A stretch of DNA of 64,000 bases from an uncultured Planctomycetaceae bacterium (GTDB lineage: Bacteria; Planctomycetota; Planctomycetia; Pirellulales; PALSA-1355). Of the stretch, positions 13,017 to 30,400 are shown one piece after another. Where the stretch lies: assembly GCA_963702015.1 (NCBI GenBank), contig OY969698.1, forward strand, positions 989,672 through 1,053,671. Reading direction: 5' to 3'. The position numbers and the translations under genes were made by a program. Within the stretch, counting starts at the first letter, position 1; each line of letters starts with the position of its first letter. The notes under the pieces were generated by a model. It saw only the letters and a list, made by a program, of their open reading frames with translations, was not told the origin of the DNA and ran no database searches.

Positions 13017-13032
13017 TGCGGGAAACAGGACT
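13017..13032. repeat. Left direct repeat (orphan tRNA-Leu 3' fragment), TGCGGGAAACAGGACT
   Basis: Identical 16-mer to 21086-21101. Similarity continues imperfectly for about 10 more bp (GTAACCCGC versus TGAACCTGC). Confidence 0.85.
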
Positions 13033-13215
13033 GTAACCCGCGACAAAGTGTATTTGCTCGAATACGCGGATCCCACGGTTAATTCGGCATTGTCGGCCTA
13101 GATGGGTAAAATGTTTCGTCGGCCGGGGTAGCTCCCCGAATCGGCTCGGCGCTGCTGGTGGTTCTCACCTTCCGCCCGTGGCGCCGAGCTGGGCCGGCTT
13201 GAAAGGTGAGAAAAC

Positions 13216-13856
13216 ATGGTCGACGACGTCGAGCGTGTGTTGTGGCTGATTGACGATTGGGACCGGACCTATAACGAGATTCTCCAACTCTTTGGCGTCA
13301 CGCCCAAGGGGCTCGAAGATCGGCGCCAGCGCTGCTCACCCAGTCTTACGCGCGGCTGATCGTCCAGGGGAGCAAACTGACCGGGCCGGCCGAACTGGCT
13401 GGCATATCCTCTGGCCCGCTTCTCAAGTTGAACTACGCTCTGTCCGCTGGCCAGCATCCCGCCGATTCGATTTGGGATGAAGCCAAAGAGCAGATTGGCC
13501 GGTTGCGGGCGAAAGTCTCGGCGGGGATTGGTCACCCGGCTGTGATTCCGATCATGCAACCAACGCCGGTTGCGATTCCGACACTTTCACAACCCCGTGC
13601 CGCCCCATCGCTCGAACAAAGCGAGTTCGATATTCTCTGTTTTCTCAGCGAGTCGGATCCCGTTCTAAAGCTTCAGGTTGACATTGAGACCGGCGCGGGC
13701 GAGAGCATGTCGCACGGCAAAGCCGGCAAGCTGCTTAATAGGCTTGAGGAGCTGGAGTACGTCCACCGACCGAAGGGCAGCCGGAAGGGCTACGGCATCA
13801 CAATCGCCGGCAAAGCTGCCTTGCAATCCAAACCAAAAACACCCGTTGCAAGTTAG
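13216..13856 (+). pseudogene. Element-encoded DNA-binding protein with C-terminal winged-helix (one frame break near 13325)
   Basis: A GAAAGGTGAG RBS precedes the ATG at 13216. C-terminus ..SEFDILCFLSESDPVLKLQVDIETGAGESMSHGKAGKLLNRLEELEYVHRPKGSRKGYGITIAGKAAL resembles MarR/PadR-like wHTH domains. Confidence 0.45.
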
Positions 13857-13911
13857 ACGCTGTTTGAACGCTATTTGCACACCCCGATTCTTGGGTCGCG
13901 AAAATCAGGGT

Positions 13912-14109
13912 ATGGAAACAAACCATACCCTTCTCACCGCCGGCCGGATAGCGCACCGGCTGCGCGTGACGGTCGCTTGGCTGAAGTCTGAGGCCGACGC
14001 TGGCCGCGTGCCGTGTCTGCGAGCCGACCGCCGCTATCTATTCAGCCCGGAGGCTGTCGAGCGTGTCCTCGCTGAACGCGCCAACGGAAGCAGGGGGGCG
14101 GCCCAATGA
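13912..14109 (+). CDS. Helix-turn-helix (HTH_17 / AlpA-excisionase-like) protein
   Basis: METNHTLLTAGRIAHRLRVTVAWLKSEADAGRVPCLRADRRYLFSPEAVERVL matches the short excisionase/MerR-type HTH pattern common in integrative elements. Confidence 0.6.
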   Translation: METNHTLLTAGRIAHRLRVTVAWLKSEADAGRVPCLRADRRYLFSPEAVERVLAERANGSRGAAQ

Positions 14110-14229
14110 TCGATGCCCCCGAGCTGCCCCGGTCAAGGTCGAGGCCATCGGCGACTTCACGCCGACCGACGCCGCGACCGAAGCGCTCGCCCGCTGGCTG
14201 TTGGAGCTGGTCGAGGCGGAGGGGCGCCG

Positions 14230-14736
14230 ATGAAAACCAAACCTTTAGCCTCGCTACTGGACGCGCTGCCGCCGAGCAATCGACGACTCGAAGAAGAAGC
14301 GTGCAGTTGCCTGCTGATCGGCACCGAGCGATCGACCGGAATTCTTTGCGCTGGTCTTGAGCCCGAAGATTTTCACACCGAATTTTGCCGCATGCTGTTC
14401 GAGCAACTGAGAGCGGCCTGGTTCTCGGGAGTGCCGTTCAATAGCCGTGGCAGTCTCATCGAGGCGATGAAAGCCACCGGCTTGCTGCGGCTGCTGGAGA
14501 CCCGATCTGGGGACAGGACTACAGCGGAAGCCATTGCGATAACGATGCAGGCCGACGGCATTCCAGGCAACGCGAGATACTACGTGCAAGCACTGCGGGC
14601 GCTTCGCCTGCGGCGAGAACTGATTCGCATCGGTGCCGACATGATCCGGCAGGCCCACGATGAGACGATGCCCGTGGTCAACACGATCGGCAACACCTTG
14701 AAGATGATCGAAAAACTATGCGAGGCAACACCGTGA
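14230..14736 (+). CDS. DnaB N-terminal-domain-like protein
   Basis: ..LPPSNRRLEEEACSCLLIGTERSTGILCAGLEPEDFHTEFCRMLFEQLRAAW.. resembles the DnaB_N pattern (PP.n.EAE..vLG..l......l.peDF....h..iF). The ATGA overlaps the preceding small ORF. Confidence 0.5.
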   Translation: MKTKPLASLLDALPPSNRRLEEEACSCLLIGTERSTGILCAGLEPEDFHTEFCRMLFEQLRAAWFSGVPFNSRGSLIEAMKATGLLRLLETRSGDRTTAEAIAITMQADGIPGNARYYVQALRALRLRRELIRIGADMIRQAHDETMPVVNTIGNTLKMIEKLCEATP

Positions 14737-14899
14737 AGGATCACGAAGCGATCAACCTGGAGCTCAACGGACCGTCACGGTCAGCCGATCCGATTCTTGG
14801 GGCATCTCGAATACCAGAACGCGAGGCCGGCGACGAACCCGACGATCAGCCCTTCGATACCGCGGCGAAAAAAGAATCTATCGTCCCGAACAAAAAGAC

Positions 14900-15965
14900 G
14901 TGCCCGAGGCGGTTTGGGTTTGTCTGTCCGACGTCGAACCGCAGACGATTACGTGGCTATGGCAGAACAGGATTGCGCTGGGCAAGATCACCGCCATTTC
15001 CGGCGACCCCGGCCTGGGCAAAAGTTTGCTGAGTCTCGACCTTGCGGCGCGCATGACAACCGCACGCCGTGGCCCAACGATTCATCGACCGCGCCGATCG
15101 GCAACGTGGTTTTGCTGTCGGCCGAAGATGATCTGGGCGACACGATACGGCCAAGGCTCGACGCGGCCGGCGCTGACGTGAACAAGATTATTGCCCTTCA
15201 AGTTGTGCGGGGTCGCGACGGCGACGGCACCTATGACCGCATGTTCGATCTTGACCGCGACATGCCCAAGCTCGAAACGGCGATCATCTCTCTGGGCGAC
15301 GTGAAGTTGGTCGTGGTCGATCCGCTCACTGCATTCCTGGGCGAGAAGGTCAAGGCGAATGACAACGCGGAAGTACGGCGAGGTCTCGCGCCCCTCGCGG
15401 ACATGGCGGCGCGGCTCGGCGTGGCCGTGCTGGCGATCAATCACCTGCGAAAGAGCGACGGGCCGGCATGTACCGCACGCTGGGCAGCGTGGCGTTCGTT
15501 GCGACCGCGCGAGCGGCTTTCGTCGTCGTGAAAGATAACGACGACCCGACAGGCCGGCGTCGGTTGATGCTGCCCATGAAAAACAATCTCGGCAACGATT
15601 CGAGCGGGCTGGCGTTCGAGTTATCGCAGCGGCACGGTCGCGAGGGCCAGCCTTGCGTGCTCTGGGAGTCCGGCGCCGTCGACACGACAGCCGACAGCGC
15701 CCTGGCACCGGCAGCGGCCCCGCGAGGCCCCAAGCCCGAGGGGCGCGACCATGCCGGCGAGTTCCTTCGCGACGCGCTCGCAGACGGCCCACGGCTCGCC
15801 AAAGAGGTGACAGAGGATGCCCGCGAGGGCCACGGCATCGCCAAGCGCACCCTCGACCGGGCGCGGAGTGAATTGGGTGTGATTGCGTACCGCGAAGCGG
15901 TCCCCGGTTCGTGGTGGTGGAAGCTCTCTTCCAAGGATGCCACCAACAATGCCACCGACCCCTAG
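14900..15965 (+). pseudogene. AAA_25 / RepA-like (RecA-fold) ATPase, probable element replication protein (two frame breaks, about 15065 and 15465)
   Basis: WLWQNRIALGKITAISGDPGLGKSLLSLDLAARMTT (Walker A); NVVLLSAEDDLGDTIRPRL; VKLVVVDPLTAFLG (Walker B-like); LGVAVLAINHLRKS; GSVAFVATARAAFVVVKD. The start could lie further upstream (14733). Confidence 0.65.
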
Positions 15966-16005
15966 ATACGAACAATATGGCAATCTTGGCATTGTTGAGA
16001 TTTAT

Positions 16006-16028
16006 AGAGAGAAAGAGAGAGAGAGAGA
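16006..16028. repeat. Polypurine (GA)n tract in the element's AT-richer intergenic block
   Basis: AGAGAGAAAGAGAGAGAGAGAGA read directly from the sequence. It lies in a ~200-bp non-coding block (15966-16170) that also holds GTGACAA x2 at 16156-16170. Confidence 0.8.
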
Positions 16029-16170
16029 TGGAAATCGCAAGGATGCCACATTGTTTCTATATGGGGGACCGGCCCAGAATCGTAGGTTCTTCCCGAGGGG
16101 GTGGGGCCTGACCAGCGATACAAAAAGCCTCACTAACCCGTGCACTGTGTTCATTGTGACAAGGTGACAA

Positions 16171-16953
16171 ATGACACCCCGAGACCGCACGATTTTGGAA
16201 GTTGCGGGCGTCGTCGATGCCAGATTTTGGCCCCTGCCGCGATGGCCGACCAAGGGCCGATGGTGGCCACGTGGCAGGCCCGGCGGGCGTACCTTGGAGG
16301 CGGCCTGGATTTGGCCGCGACCGGCGGGAGCATGGCCGCTCGCAAAAGCGCCCAGCGGCGGCGCGATGAATTGGCCCGCGCTGGGCTGGTCACTATCTGC
16401 CGGGGCAAGGCGCGAGCGGTCGGAGTCCGGCTGACCCCTCTTGCGGACGCGCGGCGCGGCAGTTGGTGGGGCTGCCCCGGCTCAACCAAGTGTTCCCGCT
16501 CGTCAAAGAGATCGTCGTGCAGGCCCGCGCGTCAGCGCACCGATTTGGGAATGCGAAATTCTCGACACGGCTTATCCGCCCGACGGCTCCGCTGCGCTGT
16601 TCGACCGACTCGCCGGGAAGTTGCTGCCCGGCTTGGTTCGCGGCTGGCTCAGTAGCAACGCGGATGCCTACGGCCGTGTGGGCTACGCGCCCGGCCTGCG
16701 AGCCGATGACATGCCCAACGAGTTGCTCGAGTCCGAACGGTTCGAGTTCGACGAAAGCAACTTCCCGCCGATCGCCGAGGCGGTTGCTGCCTACTGCGAT
16801 GCGCGCGACGCCGAGCGCGACCGTTTGGCCGCTGGCTCGGCCGAGTCGAGCGAAGTTGTGATTCCGTTGTCGGCCGGGCTCTGGCCCGCCACGAAATTCA
16901 CGAGCGTAGCACCGACTCTCCCCGAGTGGAAGCAAGCCAAGGGGCTTCGATGA
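16171..16953 (+). pseudogene. Hypothetical element protein (~260 aa, several frame breaks), possible wHTH segment
   Basis: MTPRDRTILEVAGVVD..; ..RRRDELARAGLVTICRGKARAVGVRLTPLA..; the C-terminal half (ORF 16441..16953) reads cleanly: LFDRLAGKLLPGLVRGWLSSNADAYGRVGYAPGL.... No family recognised. Confidence 0.4.
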
Positions 16954-17145
16954 GCGCCAACGCGCCGCAATTCGAAACCACGGCGCAGGCGTGCCAGTCG
17001 TGCGCGTGAAGTTGCCGCGGTGCCCCGATTGCGGATCGGCAAAAGTGCACCGCAGGACCGGTCTGTCGACCAGGGCGACGGAAGCCGACTGCGAAACACA
17101 CTCTGCAACGTGTGCGGAAAAAAGTTTTTCATCGTCGTTGAGTAA
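16950..17145 (+). pseudogene. Small zinc-ribbon protein (two frame breaks)
   Basis: The ATG overlaps the upstream stop (ATGA). ..RCPDCGSAKV.. and ..LCNVCGKKFFIVVE* give CxxC...CxxC. Confidence 0.4.
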
Positions 17146-17193
17146 GTGCCAGATGTTGGCAGTTGGACACTTTGGCTCGAGTATCATTCGCAC

Positions 17194-17376
17194 ATGGCAA
17201 CGAACTACGAAAACTCGCGCGGGTACCTTTGCCAGATGCTCGGCGTCGACCTGCGAGGGCTCGACGACGCGATTCGGCGCTGGACGTCGCGCCGTCGACT
17301 GTCACCGATGGCTTCGGAGCGCTTCGACGCGGAGGCAACGCAACGGCTCGCCGATTATTTTCGCCAGCAAACCTGA
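17194..17376 (+). CDS. Hypothetical small protein
   Basis: MATNYENSRGYLCQMLGVDLRGLDDAIRRWTSRRRLSPMASERFDAEATQRLADYFRQQT. Intact, co-oriented, possible HTH. Confidence 0.4.
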   Translation: MATNYENSRGYLCQMLGVDLRGLDDAIRRWTSRRRLSPMASERFDAEATQRLADYFRQQT

Positions 17377-17458
17377 ACAAACGAAATGCGAGCGGTGCCG
17401 GGCGCGGCTTATGAAGTTGGGACGCCGCCGGCACCCGCGCCGAAAGGAAACCGAGACT

Positions 17459-17701
17459 ATGCCTGAGATCCGACTGGATGAGACGAGTTGCCAAACGTGC
17501 GGCGGCCACGGCTCGATCACAAACGTCGCCTACATGCAAAAACTTGCCGCGATCATACCGGAGAAGTTGGCGGCTGGGGTCACGATCGAAGATCCGCAGA
17601 CGATCACCTGCGAAGCATGCGCGGGCACTGGCTTCGCGGCGAGTCACGGTTTCTGGAAACTGCGGGCGATGCTCAAGCGCACTGAATCACTTCCTTACTG
17701 A
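17459..17701 (+). CDS. Small protein with two DnaJ-type CxxCxGxG zinc-finger motifs
   Basis: MPEIRLDETSCQTCGGHGSITN...ITCEACAGTGFAASH. Confidence 0.5.
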   Translation: MPEIRLDETSCQTCGGHGSITNVAYMQKLAAIIPEKLAAGVTIEDPQTITCEACAGTGFAASHGFWKLRAMLKRTESLPY

Positions 17702-17712
17702 TCGAGAAAAAA

Positions 17713-17904
17713 ATGGACTACGCCGCACAAGTGCTCGTCGAGATGCGAACAAGCGGTTGCGATCATCGCGAGGCTTGCAAGCGCGTGGCGAAACGCGACC
17801 CGCGAGCGCATCGGACATTTTTGCTGGCGACAAATTCGCCGCGAGTGCACCACCTGATCCGCGACCGATTTGCACAGGAGTCAGAGCGAAAAAACGTGAG
17901 GTAG
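17713..17904 (+). CDS. Hypothetical small protein (paralog of 18088-18307)
   Basis: ..LVEMRTSGCDHREACKRVAKRDPRAHRTF.. aligns with ..LVREQMRRTGCDRATAAKAVKRQHPACWQSM.. of the next-but-one ORF. Confidence 0.45.
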   Translation: MDYAAQVLVEMRTSGCDHREACKRVAKRDPRAHRTFLLATNSPRVHHLIRDRFAQESERKNVR

Positions 17905-18087
17905 CCATGAGGGGTTATTGGTGCGCAGGATCGTCGCCTGCACCGGATATTTTCAGCGGCCTGGGATGCTAAAGCTGACCTGATTGTCACTGACTGGTGC
18001 GCCTTCCTTGAAACGCCCGCTGAGCGAACGACCACACTAGGCGGGCAGAAAAACAAACTGTCTTTTTTCATACGCAAGGAGTGAACC

Positions 18088-18307
18088 ATGCGACCAAGTC
18101 CGATCACGCGATGGAACCGCGCTGGTGCGGGAACAAATGCGCCGCACTGGCTGCGATCGCGCCACGGCAGCTAAGGCTGTGAAACGGCAGCACCCGGCTT
18201 GTTGGCAGTCGATGACGTTCGCGAGCAACAAAGGCCACGACGTCGCTTTGACTGAGGACTACCTACTCGGCCGCGCCGACGACGATGAAAAGAAAGGTTG
18301 TGCATAA
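18088..18307 (+). pseudogene. Hypothetical small protein (paralog of 17713-17904; one frame break near 18115)
   Basis: A CAAGGAG RBS precedes the ATG at 18088. The downstream frame is ORF 18125..18307. Confidence 0.4.
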
Positions 18308-18753
18308 TGAGCACTGCCACCGAATCCGAAACCTGCCCCGACGTCTTTGCCATTCAAGCGGCGATCGATGCTCTTCTCGCGAGACGAGCGCGACGCGAGG
18401 AATTGTCAGCCGACGAGCAAGGCATCTTGAATTATCTGTTTGGTCGGCCGAGCGAATCCGACCGCCAGCGCAATGAGATCGCACGCATGGCTGCCGTGCG
18501 TGATGCCCAGCGATGCTACGCCGCAGCGCACGACACCTGCGACCACGACGGCATGGAACGCGCGGCGTCCACCCTGCGACACCTGGCCCCCGCGTGGGTG
18601 AAATCCCCGGCCGGGCATGCCCTCGCGATCGAAGAGGCGACGGCCCGCCGTGAGTTGGGCATTAAGACGAGTCGGCGCGACACACTCCCGCGGTCGTCTC
18701 CAGGCACCGACTTGAGCCGCGCGGTACCGCTGCGGGGACGATTGAGCAAGTGA
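18307..18753 (+). CDS. Hypothetical protein
   Basis: MSTATESETCPDVFAIQAAIDALLARRARREELSADEQGILNYLFG.... TAATG start/stop overlap with the preceding ORF. Confidence 0.45.
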   Translation: MSTATESETCPDVFAIQAAIDALLARRARREELSADEQGILNYLFGRPSESDRQRNEIARMAAVRDAQRCYAAAHDTCDHDGMERAASTLRHLAPAWVKSPAGHALAIEEATARRELGIKTSRRDTLPRSSPGTDLSRAVPLRGRLSK

Positions 18754-19028
18754 AGTTGCCCCCGGCCGAAACCGACCCGACGATTGTTGAGTTTTGCCGG
18801 CGAGAATTCGCCCCCGGCGACGCGTGCTTTCCGCGAGCGCTCGAACGGCGGGCTCAGCAGCTATTGGGTCGACAAGGCGAGTTGGTTCATCGCCTGTCGT
18901 GACTTGTCGGCCGAAGCCGATCGGCTCGATCGCGAAATCGTCGACGGCGAAGCTGCGCGTTGGCCGAGATCACGCAGGCCCGGCAAGAGCACGAACGATC
19001 GCGCGCGGAAATTTACATTCCCGACTGA
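18750..19028 (+). pseudogene. Hypothetical protein (two compensating frame breaks)
   Basis: The GTG overlaps the upstream TGA. VKLPPAETDPTIVEFCRREFAPGD... ...LAEITQARQEHERSRAEIYIPD*. It is followed by a strong terminator. Confidence 0.35.
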
Positions 19029-19056
19029 AGCGATCTGACCTACGCTCGTAGCGTGG

Positions 19057-19104
19057 CTCGCCGCCGGTCGGTGGTGTAGGCCCGACCGGCGGCGAGTTCT
19101 TTTG
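19057..19104 (+). terminator. Rho-independent terminator closing the element's left operon
   Basis: Perfect 15-bp stem CTCGCCGCCGGTCGG / CCGACCGGCGGCGAG (19057-19071 / 19082-19096), followed by TTCTTTTG. Confidence 0.8.
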
Positions 19105-19153
19105 CCGGCTCGGCTGAGATTGATTCGCCTGCTGGACGTGGTACGATATGCGT

Positions 19154-19191
19154 TCCTGAATTCTCCAAGTAGTCCTGAATTCTCCAAGTAG
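19154..19191. repeat. Perfect 19-bp tandem direct repeat x2 (TCCTGAATTCTCCAAGTAG) upstream of the recombinase gene
   Basis: Read directly: 19154-19172 and 19173-19191 are identical. Confidence 0.9.
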
Positions 19192-19420
19192 GAGCAAAGC
19201 CCCCACCCGTTCGCTTGTGCGATTCGCCAAGCGCGCTGCGCTTCCAAGGCCCGCGACGTGGAACTACTTGCCACGTAGGAGCGAGGGAACGGGTTGGGGC
19301 TATCCTTCGGAGCACGCATTACACGCACCCTCGCAGCCGACGACCTGCAACACGTTCGAGGGCATCGGCTGCTCGGCAGGAGCGATCCTAGCGAACCGTT
19401 TTTGATGAAAGGTGGGCGAA

Positions 19421-21085
19421 ATGATTCGAGCAACGAAGAGCGAGCCAATTTTGGCCGCAACGTGCATCCGAATGAGCAGCAGCCAGCAGGAGGCGAGCCC
19501 GGACCAACAGCGTGCCGAACTGGTCAAGCTGGCGAAACGGTACAACGCCAAGATCGTGGGCGAGTATTTCGACGAGGGCATTAGCGGCGTGGCCACCGAC
19601 AAGCGGCGTGGTTTTCTCCAGATGTTGAACGATGCCAAGGGCGGCAAGTTCAAGCTGATCTTGGCTTGGGACCAGGACCGATTCAGCCGGCTGGACTCGA
19701 TCGACTCGGGCGAAGTTATCGCACCGCTACGGCGGGCCGGGGTTCGACTCGTCACCTGCACCCAAGGCGAGATCGACTGGAACACGTTCGCAGGACGATT
19801 AGTGTTCAACGTGGCCCAAGAGGGGAAGAATCAATTCCTCCATGATCTGTCTCGCAATATGTGCCGCAGTCTCTTGCAGCGTGGGCAGGCGGGCGAGTTG
19901 TTCGCCAAGCCACCTACGGCTACGAGCGGGTTATCGTCGACAACACCGGCCGGGAAGTGCGGCGGGTCCGGCATGGCGAGACATTCCGCAAGCCAAAGGG
20001 ATGGACCGCCCGCATCGTCCTGGCCGATGACGCGGAGATTGTTGGCGCGGTGCGGGAACTGTTCCAACAATTCGCCAGCACCGATGCAAGCCTTCAATCG
20101 CTGGCCGTTGAACTGAACCACCGGGGCCTCAGGACGAGCCGGGGGAAAGCGTGGCGCCACGATGGGGTGGGCGAACTGTTGGCCAATCCGTTCTATGCGG
20201 GCACCTATACTTTCGGCAAAACACAGATGGGCAAATTCCACCACGTTGACGCCGGCGGCTCGATCACCAAAACGACCGACCGCAAGAAACATCGGTTGCC
20301 GATTGTCGTGCTTGAGGATCACCATCCGGCTATCGTCGACCGCGGCACGTTCGAGCGCGTGCAGGCCAAGCTGGCGGAGCGGCGGGTCACCGGCCTGCGC
20401 CCCGGTCGGGTTCCTTCCCACTGTCGGGCGTGCTCAAGTGCGGACACTGCGGCTGCCCCCTCAGTGGCAGCACCCACCGGGCAACCAACGGCACCGTCCG
20501 GCGATACTACTATTGCTTTGGCGGGTCGCGTGGAACCTGCTCCCAATTCCGCGTCGGTGCCGATCGCATCGAGGGGATCGTCGCGGACTTCTTCAAAGAC
20601 ATCTGGCTGGCACCCGACGCGGCCGAGCGGTTGCGAGCCGAGTTAGTCCTCCAAGCCACCCACAAGGCGGCGCTCTCACCAGGGGCGCAAGAGGGGCTGC
20701 GGAACAAGCTGGCCAAGATCGAGCGGCAGATTGAGCGAGGTCAGCAAAACCTGCTGCTGGCCGATCCGCAGGACGTGCCCGCCTGCCAAAAGCTACTGGC
20801 GACGTGGCGAGCCGAGCGGAGCGAACTGGAAGCCAGCCTGGACGCCCTGAGTGGCCAGCAGATGACCGGCGAGCATGGGGTCGAACAGATTGCCGACCGG
20901 GCAATGCACGAACTGCGGCACCTTCACAAGCGCATGTCAGGGGGCAACCCGGCAACTGCCCGCAGCGCATTTATGGAAATGTTCTCAGGCGGGATCAGCC
21001 TGATGTTCCACCCGAGGGCAGGCGGCCGGGGCCGGTTCCATCTGGCCCGCGTGCTGATCCAAAGCAAATCGCAATTACACTTTAC

Positions 21086-21104
<19 letters not shown>
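19421..21104 (+). pseudogene. Large serine recombinase (two frame breaks, about 19900 and 20425)
   Basis: Resolvase catalytic domain: AATCIRMSSSQQEASPDQQRAELVKLAKRYNAKIVGEYFDEGISGVATDKRRGFLQMLNDAKGGKFKLILAWDQDRFSRLD. Recombinase domain: ..HGETFRKPKGW..VRELFQQF..SLQSLAVELNHRGLRTSRGKAW... Zinc ribbon: LKCGHCGCPLSG...RRYYYC. Coiled-coil tail. The stop (21102-21104) lies inside the tRNA/right repeat. Confidence 0.8.
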
Positions 21105-21169
<65 letters not shown>

Positions 21170-27490: not shown

Positions 27491-30400
27491 ATGTTCCAGC
27501 CGTTCGCGAACCGACGAAAAAACAACCCGCCCGCCAGCAGCACATCGGGCTCTAACCGCCGCAAGAAAGATCTTTTTGGCCTGCTGGGGCGACGGCTCGT
27601 CTACGAATCGCTCGAAGACCGCCGCATGCTGACGACCGACATGTGGATCGGCGGCAGCGGCGGCGACTGGAGCGTCGGCGGCAACTGGAACAACGGCATC
27701 CCCACCAGCGCGAGCAACGTGGTGATCCCCGCCGGCGTGAGTGTCACGGTGAGCACGGGCACGCAGGCAGCTGGCACGATCACGACGGATCCGACCGACA
27801 CGCTAACGATCGACGGTGGATCGCTAACCGTGGCTGCTACTTCGGCAATCGCCGGCGATCTGAATCTGAGCAGCGGCACCCTCACTGTCAGCAGCGGTGC
27901 GACGCTCACGTTGGCCGGTGCAACCAACCAATGGTCGGGTGGGACCGTCGCCGGCTCGTTTGCCGGTTCGGGCGGCGGGACCGTGTCGCTGGCCAGCGGC
28001 ACACTCAACATCGCCTCGGCCGGCACCACCTTCGATTTTCCGACTGGAATGTTCAACTGGTCGGGCGGCACGATTCAAGGGAACGGATCCAATAGCGTGC
28101 TCACCAACAATGGCACGATCACGCTGACGGGCAGCGCCAACAAGGTGTTGTTTGATGGCCTGACGCTGAACAACAGCGGCACGATCAATGAAGACGGAAC
28201 GAGTGGCAGTAACGACTGGGAGTTCAGCACTGACGTGGTTTTGAACAACCTCTCCGGCGGTATCGTCGACATGGAGACCAGTGAGTTCATCGACAACATC
28301 AGCAGTGGAAACGAGATCAACAACGAACTCGGCGCCACGTTCGAGAATACCGGCAACGACACCGTCTCCACCGGCGCCGTGCCGTTCAATAACCAAGGGG
28401 GCATCGTGGCTGCCACGGCCGGTACCTTGAATCTCACCGCCGGCGGGACCGACACCGGTGGCACGTACAACGCGTCGACAGGCGCCACGGTCAACCTGAA
28501 CAACGGCGGCACCGCCCCCACATTGACCGGCACCTATAGTGGCAGCGGGGGCGGAACGGTCGGCTTGCCGTCGGGCACCATCGGCATCGGCACCGCCGGA
28601 GCCACGTTCAGTTTCCCCGCCGGCTTGTTTAACTGGTCCGGGGGGGTCATTCAGGGAAACGGATCCAATAGCGTGCTCACCAACACCGGTGCGATCACCC
28701 TCACGGGCGGTGTTGCGAAAGAGCTATTCGACGGCTTGACGCTGAACAATAGCGGCACGATCAATGAAGAGGGCACGAGTAACAGTAACGACTGGGAGTT
28801 CAGCACTGACGTGGTTTTGAACAACCTCTCCGGCGGTATCGTCGACATGGAGACCAGTGAGTTCATCGACAACATCAGCAGTGGAAACGAGATCAACAAC
28901 GAACTCGGCGCCACGTTCGAGAATACCGGCAACGACACCGTCTCCACCGGCGCCGTGCCGTTCAATAACCAAGGGGGCATCGTGGCCGCAACGGCGGGCA
29001 CCTTGAATCTCACTGCCGGCGGGACCGACACCGGTGGCACGTACAACGCGTCGACAGGCGCCACGGTCAACCTGAACAACGGCGGCACCGCCCCCACATT
29101 GACCGGCACCTATAGTGGCAGCGGGGGCGGAACGGTCGGCTTGCCGTCGGGCACCATCGGCATCGGCACCGCCGGAGCCACGTTCAGTTTCCCCGCCGGC
29201 TTGTTTAACTGGTCCGGGGGGGTCATTCAGGGAAACGGATCCAATAGCGTGCTCACAAACACCGGCACGATCACCCTGACCGGCGGCGGTGCCAAAGTTC
29301 TGTTCGATGGACTCACGCTGAACAATAGCGGCACGATCAATGAAGAGGGCACGAGTAACAGTAACGACTGGGAGTTCAGCGCTAGCGCCGTCTTGGACAA
29401 CCTCTCCGGCGGCATCGTCGACATGGAGACCAGTGAGTTCATCGACAACATCAGCAGTGGAAACGCCATCAACAACGAAGCCGGCGCCACGTTCGAGAAT
29501 ACCGGCAGCAACACCGTCTCCACTGGTGCCGTGCCGTTCAATAACCAAGGTGGAATCGTGTCCGCTACGGCCGGGACTTTGAATCTCACCGGCGGGGGAA
29601 CCGACACCGGTGGCACGTACAACGCATCAACGAACGCCACCGTCAATCTGAACAACGGCGGGACCGCGCCACTTTGACTGGCACCTACTCGGGCAGCGGT
29701 GGCGGAACCATTGGCTTGCCGTCCGGGACCATCGACATCGGCGCCGCCGGAGCCACGTTCAATTTCCCAACCAGCCTGTTCAATTGGTCCGGCGGCACGA
29801 TCCAAGGGGACGGAGTCGGTAATGTGCTCACAAACACGGGTACGATCACCCTGACCGGCAGCGGTGCCAAAATTCTGTTCGATGGACTCACGCTGAACAA
29901 TAGCGGCACGATCGACGAAGATGGCACAAGTGGCTCCAACGACTGGGAGTTCGACAGTACGCGCGGTTTTGGACAACCTCTCCGGCGGCATCGTCGACAT
30001 GGAGACCAGTGAGTATATCGACAACATCAGTAGTGGAAATGCGATTAACAACGAAGGCGGGGCAACGTTCGAAAATACTGGCAGCGACACCGTCTCGACC
30101 GGCCTCGTGCCGTTCAATAATCAAGGGGGCATCGTGTCCGCCACGGCCGGTACCTTGAATATCACCGGTGGGGGAACCGACACGGGTGGCACCTTCAACC
30201 CATCGACCGGCGCCACGATCAACCTGAACAATAGCGGCACCGCGCCGACATTGACCGGTACCTACAGCGGCAGCGGTGGTGGAACGGTCGGCTTGCCAGC
30301 GGGCACCATCGACATCGGTACCGCCGGAGCCACGTTCAATTTCCCGACGGGCCTTTTCAATTGGTCCGGCGGCACGATCCAAGGAAACGGAGCCGGTAAT

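Follow-up and report, generated by a model that had tools for sequence, protein, structure and literature searches.

A 64-kb stretch of contig OY969698.1 (hereafter the window), from a Pirellulales bacterium (Planctomycetota), carries a genuine and well-delimited mobile element of 8,069 bp that was put into the end of a tRNA-Leu gene by a large serine recombinase (LSR). We favor, with a probability of about 0.6, the reading that this is a site-specific integrative element with its own LSR, that it replicates as an episome by means of its helicase, that it is a member of a wider family, and that its frame breaks are mostly assembly errors. A compact integrative element at tRNA-Leu(GAG), with an LSR, helix-turn-helix (HTH) proteins and an AAA_25 replication ATPase, had been proposed in an earlier note on this DNA, and our analysis supports that proposal. 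The features of the element are listed in Table 1.

The element is bounded by a perfect 16-bp direct repeat, TGCGGGAAACAGGACT, at 13017-13032 and 21086-21101. These are its only two occurrences in the window, and the two matches were reproduced in 0 of 100 shuffles. With mismatches allowed, the repeat extends to 25 nt (22/25, 88% identity), and the copies are spaced 8,069 bp apart. A larger segmental duplication around the repeat was looked for and none was found. ARAGORN and Rfam (52.4 bits) detected a single intact tRNA-Leu(GAG) on the minus strand, and the right repeat copy spans its discriminator base, 3' acceptor strand, 3' T-stem strand and three T-loop bases. The left copy is an isolated 3' tRNA fragment, which as far as the crossover would be the original chromosomal tRNA 3' end. 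Exact matching, ARAGORN and Rfam bear out what the earlier note had said of the repeat, of the intact tRNA-Leu on the right and of the orphan fragment on the left. Its claim of transcription in one direction was also correct: by GC content at third codon positions and open-frame analysis, every convincing gene in the interval lies on the plus strand.

Table 1. Features of the integrative element and its attachment sites (window coordinates)
Feature	Position	Strand	Basis or remark
attL core, left 16-bp repeat copy	13017..13032		predicted crossover GA 13029-13030
P' arm of attachment site, GTAACCCGCGACAAAGTGTATTTGC	13033..13057		inverted-repeat partner of 21060-21085
g1, ~213 aa, HTH motifs and C-terminal PadR-like winged helix	13216..13856	+	PadR 0.005, below cut-off
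g2, 65 aa, HTH_17/AlpA-like, excisionase-type or regulatory HTH	13912..14109	+	HTH_17 4e-4, below cut-off
g3, ~42-aa open reading frame (ORF), one frame break near 14130	14106..14233	+	open frame; no family match
g4, 168 aa, weakly DnaB N-terminal-like, intact	14230..14736	+	Pfam DnaB 0.028
g5, ~416-aa AAA_25 (RepA/DnaB/RadA-like RecA-fold) ATPase, C-terminal HTH-like domain	14718..15965	+	Pfam AAA_25
Putative replication origin	15932..16067		starts in g5 last codons; proposed from position
g6, ~263 aa, MarR-like winged-helix stretch by eye	16171..16953	+	intact 253-aa homolog P0241
g7, ~46-aa zinc-ribbon protein (CPDC...CNVC), one frame break near 17045	17006..17145	+	
g8, 60-aa ORF, intact	17194..17376	+	
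g9, 80 aa, two CXXCXGXG (DnaJ-type) zinc-finger motifs, intact	17459..17701	+	DnaJ_CXXCXGXG 2.3e-5, below cut-off
g10, 63-aa ORF, paralog of g11, intact	17713..17904	+	
g11, ~73-aa ORF, paralog of g10	18088..18307	+	
g12, 148-aa ORF, intact	18307..18753	+	
g13, ~92-aa ORF, two frame breaks near 18880 and 18952	18750..19028	+	
Intrinsic terminator	19057..19103	+	15-bp perfect GC-rich stem, 10-nt loop, UUCUUUU; z = -4.8
Perfect 19-bp tandem duplication, TCCTGAATTCTCCAAGTAG x2	19154..19191		between terminator and recombinase gene
LSR, 561 aa once mended	19421..21104	+	Pfam domains in three frames; phrog_95 integrase 1e-82
P arm of attachment site, GCAATTACACTTTAC...	21060..21085		inside recombinase gene 3' end; conserved in L046
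attR core, right repeat copy	21086..21101		predicted crossover GA 21098-21099
tRNA-Leu(GAG), intact, integration target	21086..21169	-	ARAGORN, Rfam

The boundaries were confirmed by an independent copy of the element. A metagenome contig of 8,098 bp (ENA ERZ25039454:contig_15304, here L295) aligns end to end with window positions 13031-21088 at 97.2% identity. It begins at base 15 of the core and ends at base 3. L295 is therefore cut inside the attachment core at both ends, exactly where the boundaries had been predicted. Such an element-only contig is what an assembler produces when reads join the ends of an element in several ways. An excised circle, empty and occupied sites occurring together, or several host backgrounds would each fit.

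The 3' 45 nt of the tRNA-Leu are identical in 42 contigs of planctomycete and related metagenome-assembled genomes, most of which carry the whole 84-nt gene. Scoring integrase adjacency only, we found no integrase beside the tRNA in 25 of the 42 loci, a tyrosine integrase in five and an LSR in none; a further five are partial tRNA copies and seven have too little flank. By this distribution, the insertion is not ancestral. The ModA/Mop/MotB left flank of the window was absent from all 42 loci, so that no empty site with both flanks conserved was available. The expectation of an empty tRNA-Leu site in relatives held in most of them as scored by the adjacent integrase. The tRNA-Leu(GAG) gene also appears to be an integration hotspot among these loci (L001-L042), as five genomes carry a tyrosine-integrase island at its 3' end, e.g., L042. 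The five partial tRNA copies are 49-59 nt long (two are cut by a contig end) and look like the far ends of islands.

In the recombinase gene, Pfam matches to Resolvase (3.8e-22), Recombinase (2.2e-21) and Zn_ribbon_recom (1.7e-10) are spread over three reading frames, one per frame, and two single-base breaks lie near 19915 and 20400. The order of a resolvase catalytic domain, a Recombinase domain and a zinc beta-ribbon is the hallmark of LSRs. Residues R17, S19, Q23, R62, R87 and R90, which are invariant across 30 relatives, are kept, as are all 51 family-invariant residues. The closest relative, P0121 in locus L046, is intact, 67% identical and 561 aa long, which equals the mended length. 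The nearest solved relatives are the SPbeta SprA (1.7e-25), A118 and phiC31 integrases. These three domains and the hairpin upstream confirm the earlier claim of an LSR following a strong terminator.

Locus L046 has the same gene order as the window (LSR, tRNA-Leu, GAF-SpoIIE, ALS, Sat). The housekeeping ALS is 96.8% identical between the two, whereas the recombinase is only 67% identical, and upstream of the recombinase L046 aligns only over the last ~80 bp before the start codon, the rest being unrelated DNA. Therefore, the site holds different elements in close relatives, and the contrast in identity points to a horizontal origin of the element. A 45% identical recombinase is found in L048 at the same tRNA-Leu beside the same GAF-SpoIIE gene, as part of a larger element with an AAA_25 gene of its own. 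The 19-bp tandem duplication upstream of the recombinase gene is present in L295 and not conserved in L046, and is possibly a regulatory site. In L050-L053, two tandem tyrosine recombinases stand in front of a P0123-type recombinase (44-45% identical), forming a three-recombinase arrangement. No tRNA was called in L050, where the next gene is DUF1501, and the target of the P0123 type therefore differs.

The attachment site of the free element was rebuilt from the element-side arm of attR, the core and the element-side arm of attL. The resulting attP reads ...CACTTTAC-TGCGGGAAACAGGACT-GTAACCC..., and attB reads ...GGAGCAAAG-TGCGGGAAACAGGACT-TGAACCTGC.... The reconstructed attP is a 56-bp imperfect palindrome with 19 of 26 dyad matches per arm, a value that none of 2,000 shuffles reached. 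This short, imperfect dyad about a central dinucleotide is the architecture expected for an LSR. Its centre lies between core nucleotides 13 and 14 (GG|AC). The best dyad of attB is weak, shares this centre and corresponds to the T-arm of the tRNA. Because the dyad is centred at this position, the non-palindromic central GA is the likely crossover (13029/30 and 21098/99), at the boundary of T-stem and T-loop. The identity block is lopsided about this GA, with 12 bases on the tRNA-end side and two on the other. It runs from the crossover to the discriminator base, as would be expected of an element that has to re-supply the last 13-14 nt of the tRNA.

The last six codons of the recombinase (TAGNRT) lie inside the tRNA-derived core, and its stop codon is the T-loop TGA just beyond. 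Read from the sequence, the recombinase ORF of an excised circle would gain 22 codons (13033-13101). The same stop-in-tRNA layout is found in the two nearest recombinase relatives (L046 2087-2105 and L048 11665-11683), and more distant family members with an LSR and an AAA_25 gene (L172, L183, L186 and L196) read 33-60 nt into their own tRNA. An exact search of the JGI metagenomes gave no match to the attL or attP junction. The evidence strongly indicates that the LSR joined the ~56-bp near-palindromic attP, which sits in the last codons of its own gene, to the T-arm of tRNA-Leu(GAG), and that the element's copy of the last 13-14 nt keeps the tRNA intact after insertion. Excision presumably needs a small directionality factor encoded among the ORFs.

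After excision, the circle would replicate as an episome through the RepA/DnaB-like ATPase g5. The AAA_25 match of g5 has an E-value of 1.2e-35 (123 bits against a cut-off of 27), and its PHROG matches are primase/helicase families. The gene contains three frame breaks, near 14890, 15062 and 15467. Walker A (GDPGLGKS) and Walker B (VVVDP) motifs are present, G99, K102, S103 and D202 are invariant, and all 38 family-invariant residues are retained. The nearest solved relatives are RadA and RSF1010 RepA (profile match to structure 1G8Y). More than 1,500 homologs were found, chiefly in Pirellulales and Phycisphaerae, many of them fused to DnaB_N, Prim-Pol or Toprim domains, and AAA_25 relatives occur on small plasmids. 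We presume that g5 is the replicative helicase of the element.

The end of g4 overlaps the start of g5 by 19 nt, and g4 matches phrog_19, a DnaB-like helicase family, at 6.8e-4 (profile positions 169-284). The possibility that g4 is the broken-off N-terminus of the helicase was rejected: the homolog P0001 begins at the same point as g5, and none of the N-terminal extensions among 120 AAA_25 homologs is matched by g4. Where the earlier note had named a DnaB-N-like protein and an AAA_25 ATPase, the latter is confirmed, and the DnaB_N match is weak and below its cut-off.

A repeat-rich region just downstream of g5 is proposed from its position as the replication origin. It contains CAAGGATGCCAC-type repeats, three direct and one inverted, and a 35-nt imperfect inverted repeat flanking an (AG)n low-GC tract. 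Staphylococcus aureus pathogenicity islands (SaPIs) have an iteron origin beside rep, and the region downstream of g5 resembles that layout. The next gene, g6, spans three reading frames, being broken near 16232, 16435 and 16543, and its homolog P0241 aligns across all three. No family match to g6 was obtained in profile searches, and the MarR-like assignment was made by eye. A g6-like gene comes after a Prim-Pol/AAA_25 gene in the phage-like contigs L225 and L226; in L225 (8846-12222), an IMG/VR contig with a large terminase gene, it stands immediately behind the Prim-Pol/AAA_25 fusion. Other g6-like genes precede LSRs in L064 and L074, and in L074 (212-1236) a g7-like ORF follows the g6-like one, the pair standing before the LSR. 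From these neighbours, g6 is probably part of the replication module, as a candidate partner or initiator. Together with g4, it would assist g5 at the proposed origin. The g6-g7 pair seems to be a conserved module that is also found in phages.

The helicase is common in the phylum. At least 548 loci in GTDB species representatives, mainly Planctomycetota, encode AAA_25 relatives of g5. Among the best 80 of these at least 548 loci, 65 have an integrase within 8 kb (58 tyrosine, nine LSR, some both). Where the full flanks were available, an integrase was found in 34 of 35 loci and a tRNA in 30 of 35. HTH_17, AAA_25 and the integrase usually follow one another in this order, with an oppositely oriented tRNA next. 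When tRNA-derived direct repeats were sought with a minimum length of 14 nt, 17 candidate elements spanning 4.2-12.9 kb emerged; 14 of them, whose repeats measure 22-58 bp, were accepted as delimited. Their 116 ORFs comprise AAA_25 (14), Phage_integrase (11), a few HTH, Toprim or DnaB_N proteins, one small terminase and one HNH protein, and no capsid, portal, relaxase or type IV secretion system (T4SS) gene was found among them.

Members of the family, as we define it, encode an AAA_25 homolog of at least 40% identity that is preceded by an HTH_17-like gene and shares its strand with an integrase; just past the integrase lies an oppositely oriented tRNA, and tRNA-derived direct repeats stand 4-13 kb apart. 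The element shows all of these features and differs by 3.4 kb of small ORFs between helicase and integrase. It is a member of a large, mostly planctomycete family in which tyrosine and serine integrases are interchangeable, and the same module is found at further tRNAs of planctomycete genomes, a recurrence that had been suggested as a check. The closest helicase relative in the genome collection, L043/L134 (4395-10228), lies in a 5.8-kb element that occupies a tRNA-Ala and is bounded by a repeat of 22 bp. With a small-terminase gene (Terminase_4, 4e-20), this element is the family's strongest candidate for a satellite. Elements with an AAA_25 gene and an LSR were also seen in L143, L172, L183, L188 and L196, with helicases 40-47% identical and an adjacent tRNA in L172, L183 and L196. 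These contigs are binned as candidate phyla radiation (CPR) bacteria (Paceibacterota, Kaiserbacteria, Lloydbacteria, Saccharibacteria and Minisyncoccia), a placement that reflects contamination of the bins or else a far broader host range.

The remaining genes of the element are small. The first gene, g1, has one frame break near 13330 and a weak homolog upstream of HTH_17 in L198, and is probably a regulator. For g2, the best PHROG match is an excisionase (2.7e-4). Its HTH_17 assignment is strengthened by 41-51% identity to the HTH genes preceding AAA_25 in relatives, whose HTH_17 matches are significant. The winged-HTH (wHTH) and AlpA/HTH_17-like proteins noted earlier are present, although their profile matches are weak and below the cut-offs. 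Both would act as regulators. The two zinc-ribbon ORFs and the paralog pair that had been described were also found, the latter being a weak pair (g10 and g11, 30% identity, pairwise E = 1e-6). There is probably one frame break in g11, near 18118; otherwise it has a GTG start at 18125. Beyond the element's own two copies, only two distant relatives of g12 were found among 1.84 billion representative proteins. The terminator ends this long operon, and the recombinase gene comes next.

In the profile searches suggested earlier, the three recombinase domains and AAA_25 gave significant matches. No structural, packaging, conjugation or defence family was matched by the element's genes in Pfam, PHROGs or PADLOC, and the absence of recognisable structural, conjugative and defence cargo that had been claimed is borne out. 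The PADLOC scan gave two negligible matches only, both on a P-loop. With no structural PHROG match to capsid, portal, terminase, tail or lysis genes, the element does not qualify as a prophage, and with no relaxase, coupling protein or T4SS in Pfam or PHROGs it does not qualify as an integrative and conjugative or mobilizable element. The same searches revealed no recognisable encoded route of transfer between cells. A megablast search of GenBank phages gave no DNA match to the element, and PLSDB plasmid proteins are at most 37% identical to its proteins. Outside the element, a 728-aa ORF of the window (27491-29677) consists of about three long near-identical repeats in which Gly, Thr, Asn and Ser abound; it looks like a secreted or surface repeat protein.

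The closest described kinds of element are the tycheposons, the satellites resembling phage-inducible chromosomal islands (PICIs) and the virion-encapsidated integrative mobile elements (VEIMEs), and the element is a demonstrated member of none. Like tycheposons, it is small, is flanked by a full and a partial tRNA, has a site-specific integrase at one end, and combines an excisionase-like HTH with a small replication module (helicase or primase) and no capsid or conjugation genes. Some tycheposons and VEIMEs use LSRs (10.1101/2020.12.28.424599; PMC9618062). In the tycheposons of Prochlorococcus described by Hackl et al., the integrase is mostly a tyrosine recombinase and an LSR is found in 27 of 937 elements (10.1101/2020.12.28.424599). 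However, tycheposons are defined by an inward-facing integrase, whereas the recombinase here faces outward into the tRNA. The host is of another phylum and the element has no recognisable adaptive cargo, in a comparison made by description.

PICIs and VEIMEs share with the element a core of integrase, AlpA-like HTH and primase/helicase in less than 15 kb (PMC9618062), many ORFs of no assigned function, and serine recombinases in one VEIME module and in PICI-like elements (PLEs). This satellite core is represented here by the LSR, the weakly HTH_17-like g2 and the AAA_25 protein, the latter without a primase domain. Unlike those satellites, the element has no terS, capsid-size redirection or other packaging gene, and its AAA_25 helicase lacks a primase domain. 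The pSAM2-type integrative and conjugative elements of actinomycetes (AICEs) are likewise about 10 kb, integrate into tRNA genes, excise to a circle and replicate autonomously (PMC2440964). In contrast, they have a tyrosine integrase with Xis, a RepSA-type initiator and an FtsK-like Tra (PMC2440964), none of which is found in the element.

RSF1010 RepA and the DnaB-family hexameric helicases resemble g5 in their RecA-fold ATPase, Walker A/B motifs and small-plasmid relatives, but the similarity to RepA is remote (E = 7e-6) and g5 adds a C-terminal HTH-like domain. The LSR systems of SPbeta SprA, A118, phiC31, Bxb1 and TP901-1 share the order of Resolvase, Recombinase and Zn-ribbon domains and a short attP with an imperfect dyad about a non-palindromic central dinucleotide. 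The element differs from them in targeting a tRNA 3' end and rebuilding the tRNA through a 16-bp identity block, and in an attP that overlaps the recombinase's own stop codon. Targeting of a tRNA 3' end with a rebuilding identity block is typical of tyrosine integrases. A limited literature search found no description of such elements in Planctomycetota. Where the element had been put forward as an undescribed system, its kind is in fact known (tycheposons, PICI-like islands and VEIMEs, some with LSRs), whereas this planctomycete family itself appears to be undescribed.

About 14 frame breaks are real in the given sequence of the 8-kb element, in agreement with the earlier remark that many of its genes are frame-broken. 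All are small indels, 12 of the 14 can be mended by adding one base, and no nonsense codon was found. The flanking genes are broken in the same way. Pfam positions 1-42 of ModA are in one frame and 50-226 in another, the GAF-SpoIIE and sulfate adenylyltransferase (Sat) genes have one break each against the L046 proteins, and the MotA, MotB and Mop/TOBE domains are truncated likewise (flanking breaks lie at, e.g., 10400, 11150, 12200, 12815, 22535 and 26380).

Between L295 and the window there are 51 indels and 176 substitutions. Bases are missing in the window at 38 of these indels, often after GCGC or CGC; such losses have the look of a systematic long-read error, which may arise at a methylated motif. 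In L295, fragmentation is worse still than in the window. Four or five window breaks have an L295 indel of matching size at the same place, e.g., both breaks of g13, where the L295 indels of +5 and +1 alone restore the frame once a further -1 at 18837 is excluded. The break near 19915 in the recombinase gene is common to both. Mismatches to L295 are spread over the codon positions without bias (33/29/30) and are clustered in the helicase gene, which is badly degraded there. A selection test on this comparison was discarded, as it measures assembly noise. Because housekeeping genes are broken too, the breaks are indels only, the invariant residues are kept and L295 differs by 51 indels, assembly error is the likelier explanation, and long-read assembly error is most probably the main cause of the breaks.

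Several points weigh against the reading of a replicating integrative element with genes broken by assembly. No directionality factor was identified; the candidate small ORFs g3 and g7-g13 have no family match in Pfam or PHROGs, and to our knowledge recombination directionality factors share no common family. No primase or recognised initiator domain is encoded, and replication is predicted from homology and gene position only. The repeats of the candidate origin are short, with two exact copies, and were equalled in three of 100 shuffles. The HTH_17, DnaB_N and wHTH assignments are all under the curated Pfam thresholds. The core ends of L295 fit an excised circle or population heterogeneity and prove neither. 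The density of breaks is about twice that of the flanks (~14 in 8 kb against ~6 in 9 kb); by hand calculation, p is ~0.04 for the homolog-validated genes alone and ~0.09 with the left-flank genes added, of which ModA alone is validated. Finally, limited real decay may be indicated by the 19915 break shared with L295.

A phage satellite of the PICI or VEIME type would excise on induction by a helper, replicate with its own helicase and be packaged in helper capsids, with the small ORFs serving in helper sensing and interference. The element agrees with this pattern in its combination of integrase, AlpA-like HTH and helicase, in its size and in having no structural genes (PMC9618062; 10.1101/2020.12.28.424599). 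In addition, the terminase gene lies in the closest genome-collection helicase relative, another delimited relative carries the HNH gene, the module of AAA_25 and g6 is common to a terminase-bearing phage contig, and AAA_25 relatives are common on IMG/VR contigs. However, no terS, capsid-remodelling, cos/pac or interference gene was recognisable by Pfam or PHROGs, a TerS was found in only one of the 14 delimited relatives, no helper phage is known, and GenBank phages gave no megablast match. We regard a satellite as an unlikely alternative.

A broader reading, which we hold to be rather doubtful, is that the element belongs to a phylum-wide, undescribed lineage of minimal helper-dependent elements of Planctomycetota, either phage satellites or hitchers borne by vesicles or conjugation. 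Such a lineage would combine one replication cassette (HTH_17, AAA_25 and a g6-like gene) with plug-in tyrosine or serine integrases. In its serine-integrase branch, the position of attP within the final recombinase codons would give the enzyme a different C-terminus in each state (561 aa integrated, 583 aa excised), and this difference would act as a built-in switch of recombination direction.

The element might instead be an immobile, decaying remnant whose recombinase, helicase and other genes are now true pseudogenes. The breaks include two in the recombinase and three in the helicase, their density is somewhat above that of the homolog-validated flanking genes, and the shared break near 19915 would fit as well. 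However, decay, which had been suspected earlier, is not borne out: ModA, GAF-SpoIIE and Sat next to the element are frame-broken alike, there are no in-frame stops, all invariant residues are kept, and 12 of the 14 breaks are single-base losses. A ratio of 51 indels to 176 substitutions at 97% identity is implausible for real evolution. The repeats are perfect and the tRNA is intact, and the limits of L295 exactly at the attachment core indicate recent mobility or heterogeneity. A decaying remnant is accordingly improbable.

Least of all do we expect an integrative mobilizable hitcher that after excision is moved by a co-resident conjugative element through an origin of transfer (oriT) or an unrecognised relaxase, with the AAA_25 protein serving maintenance rather than vegetative replication: transfer genes cannot be recognised in many genomic islands, there is a proposal of minimal hitchers that use conjugative elements (10.64898/2026.01.13.699239), and the different tyrosine-integrase island of L042 at the same tRNA-Leu has one ORF with a P-loop (by eye only), but neither the element nor the 14 delimited relatives have a relaxase, coupling protein or T4SS, an oriT being beyond these searches.

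Little has been described of the mobile elements of Planctomycetota, and few genetic tools exist for the phylum. The integrative element described here offers an entry point to them and might be made into a tool for integration or replication. Its serine-integrase system is self-contained, with an attP predicted at 56 bp and an attB in a tRNA-Leu of identical sequence across dozens of Pirellulales genomes, and would be a plausible one-step integration vector for Pirellulales; the segment of g4, g5, the proposed origin and g6 is a candidate replicon. The frame breaks also serve as a warning for annotation: those of the given assembly should not be taken as pseudogenes. The census, of at least 548 loci, reveals that a single helicase cassette with interchangeable integrases occupies many tRNA genes of the phylum, and it may help in the annotation of islands and in studying how elements with so few genes pass from cell to cell.

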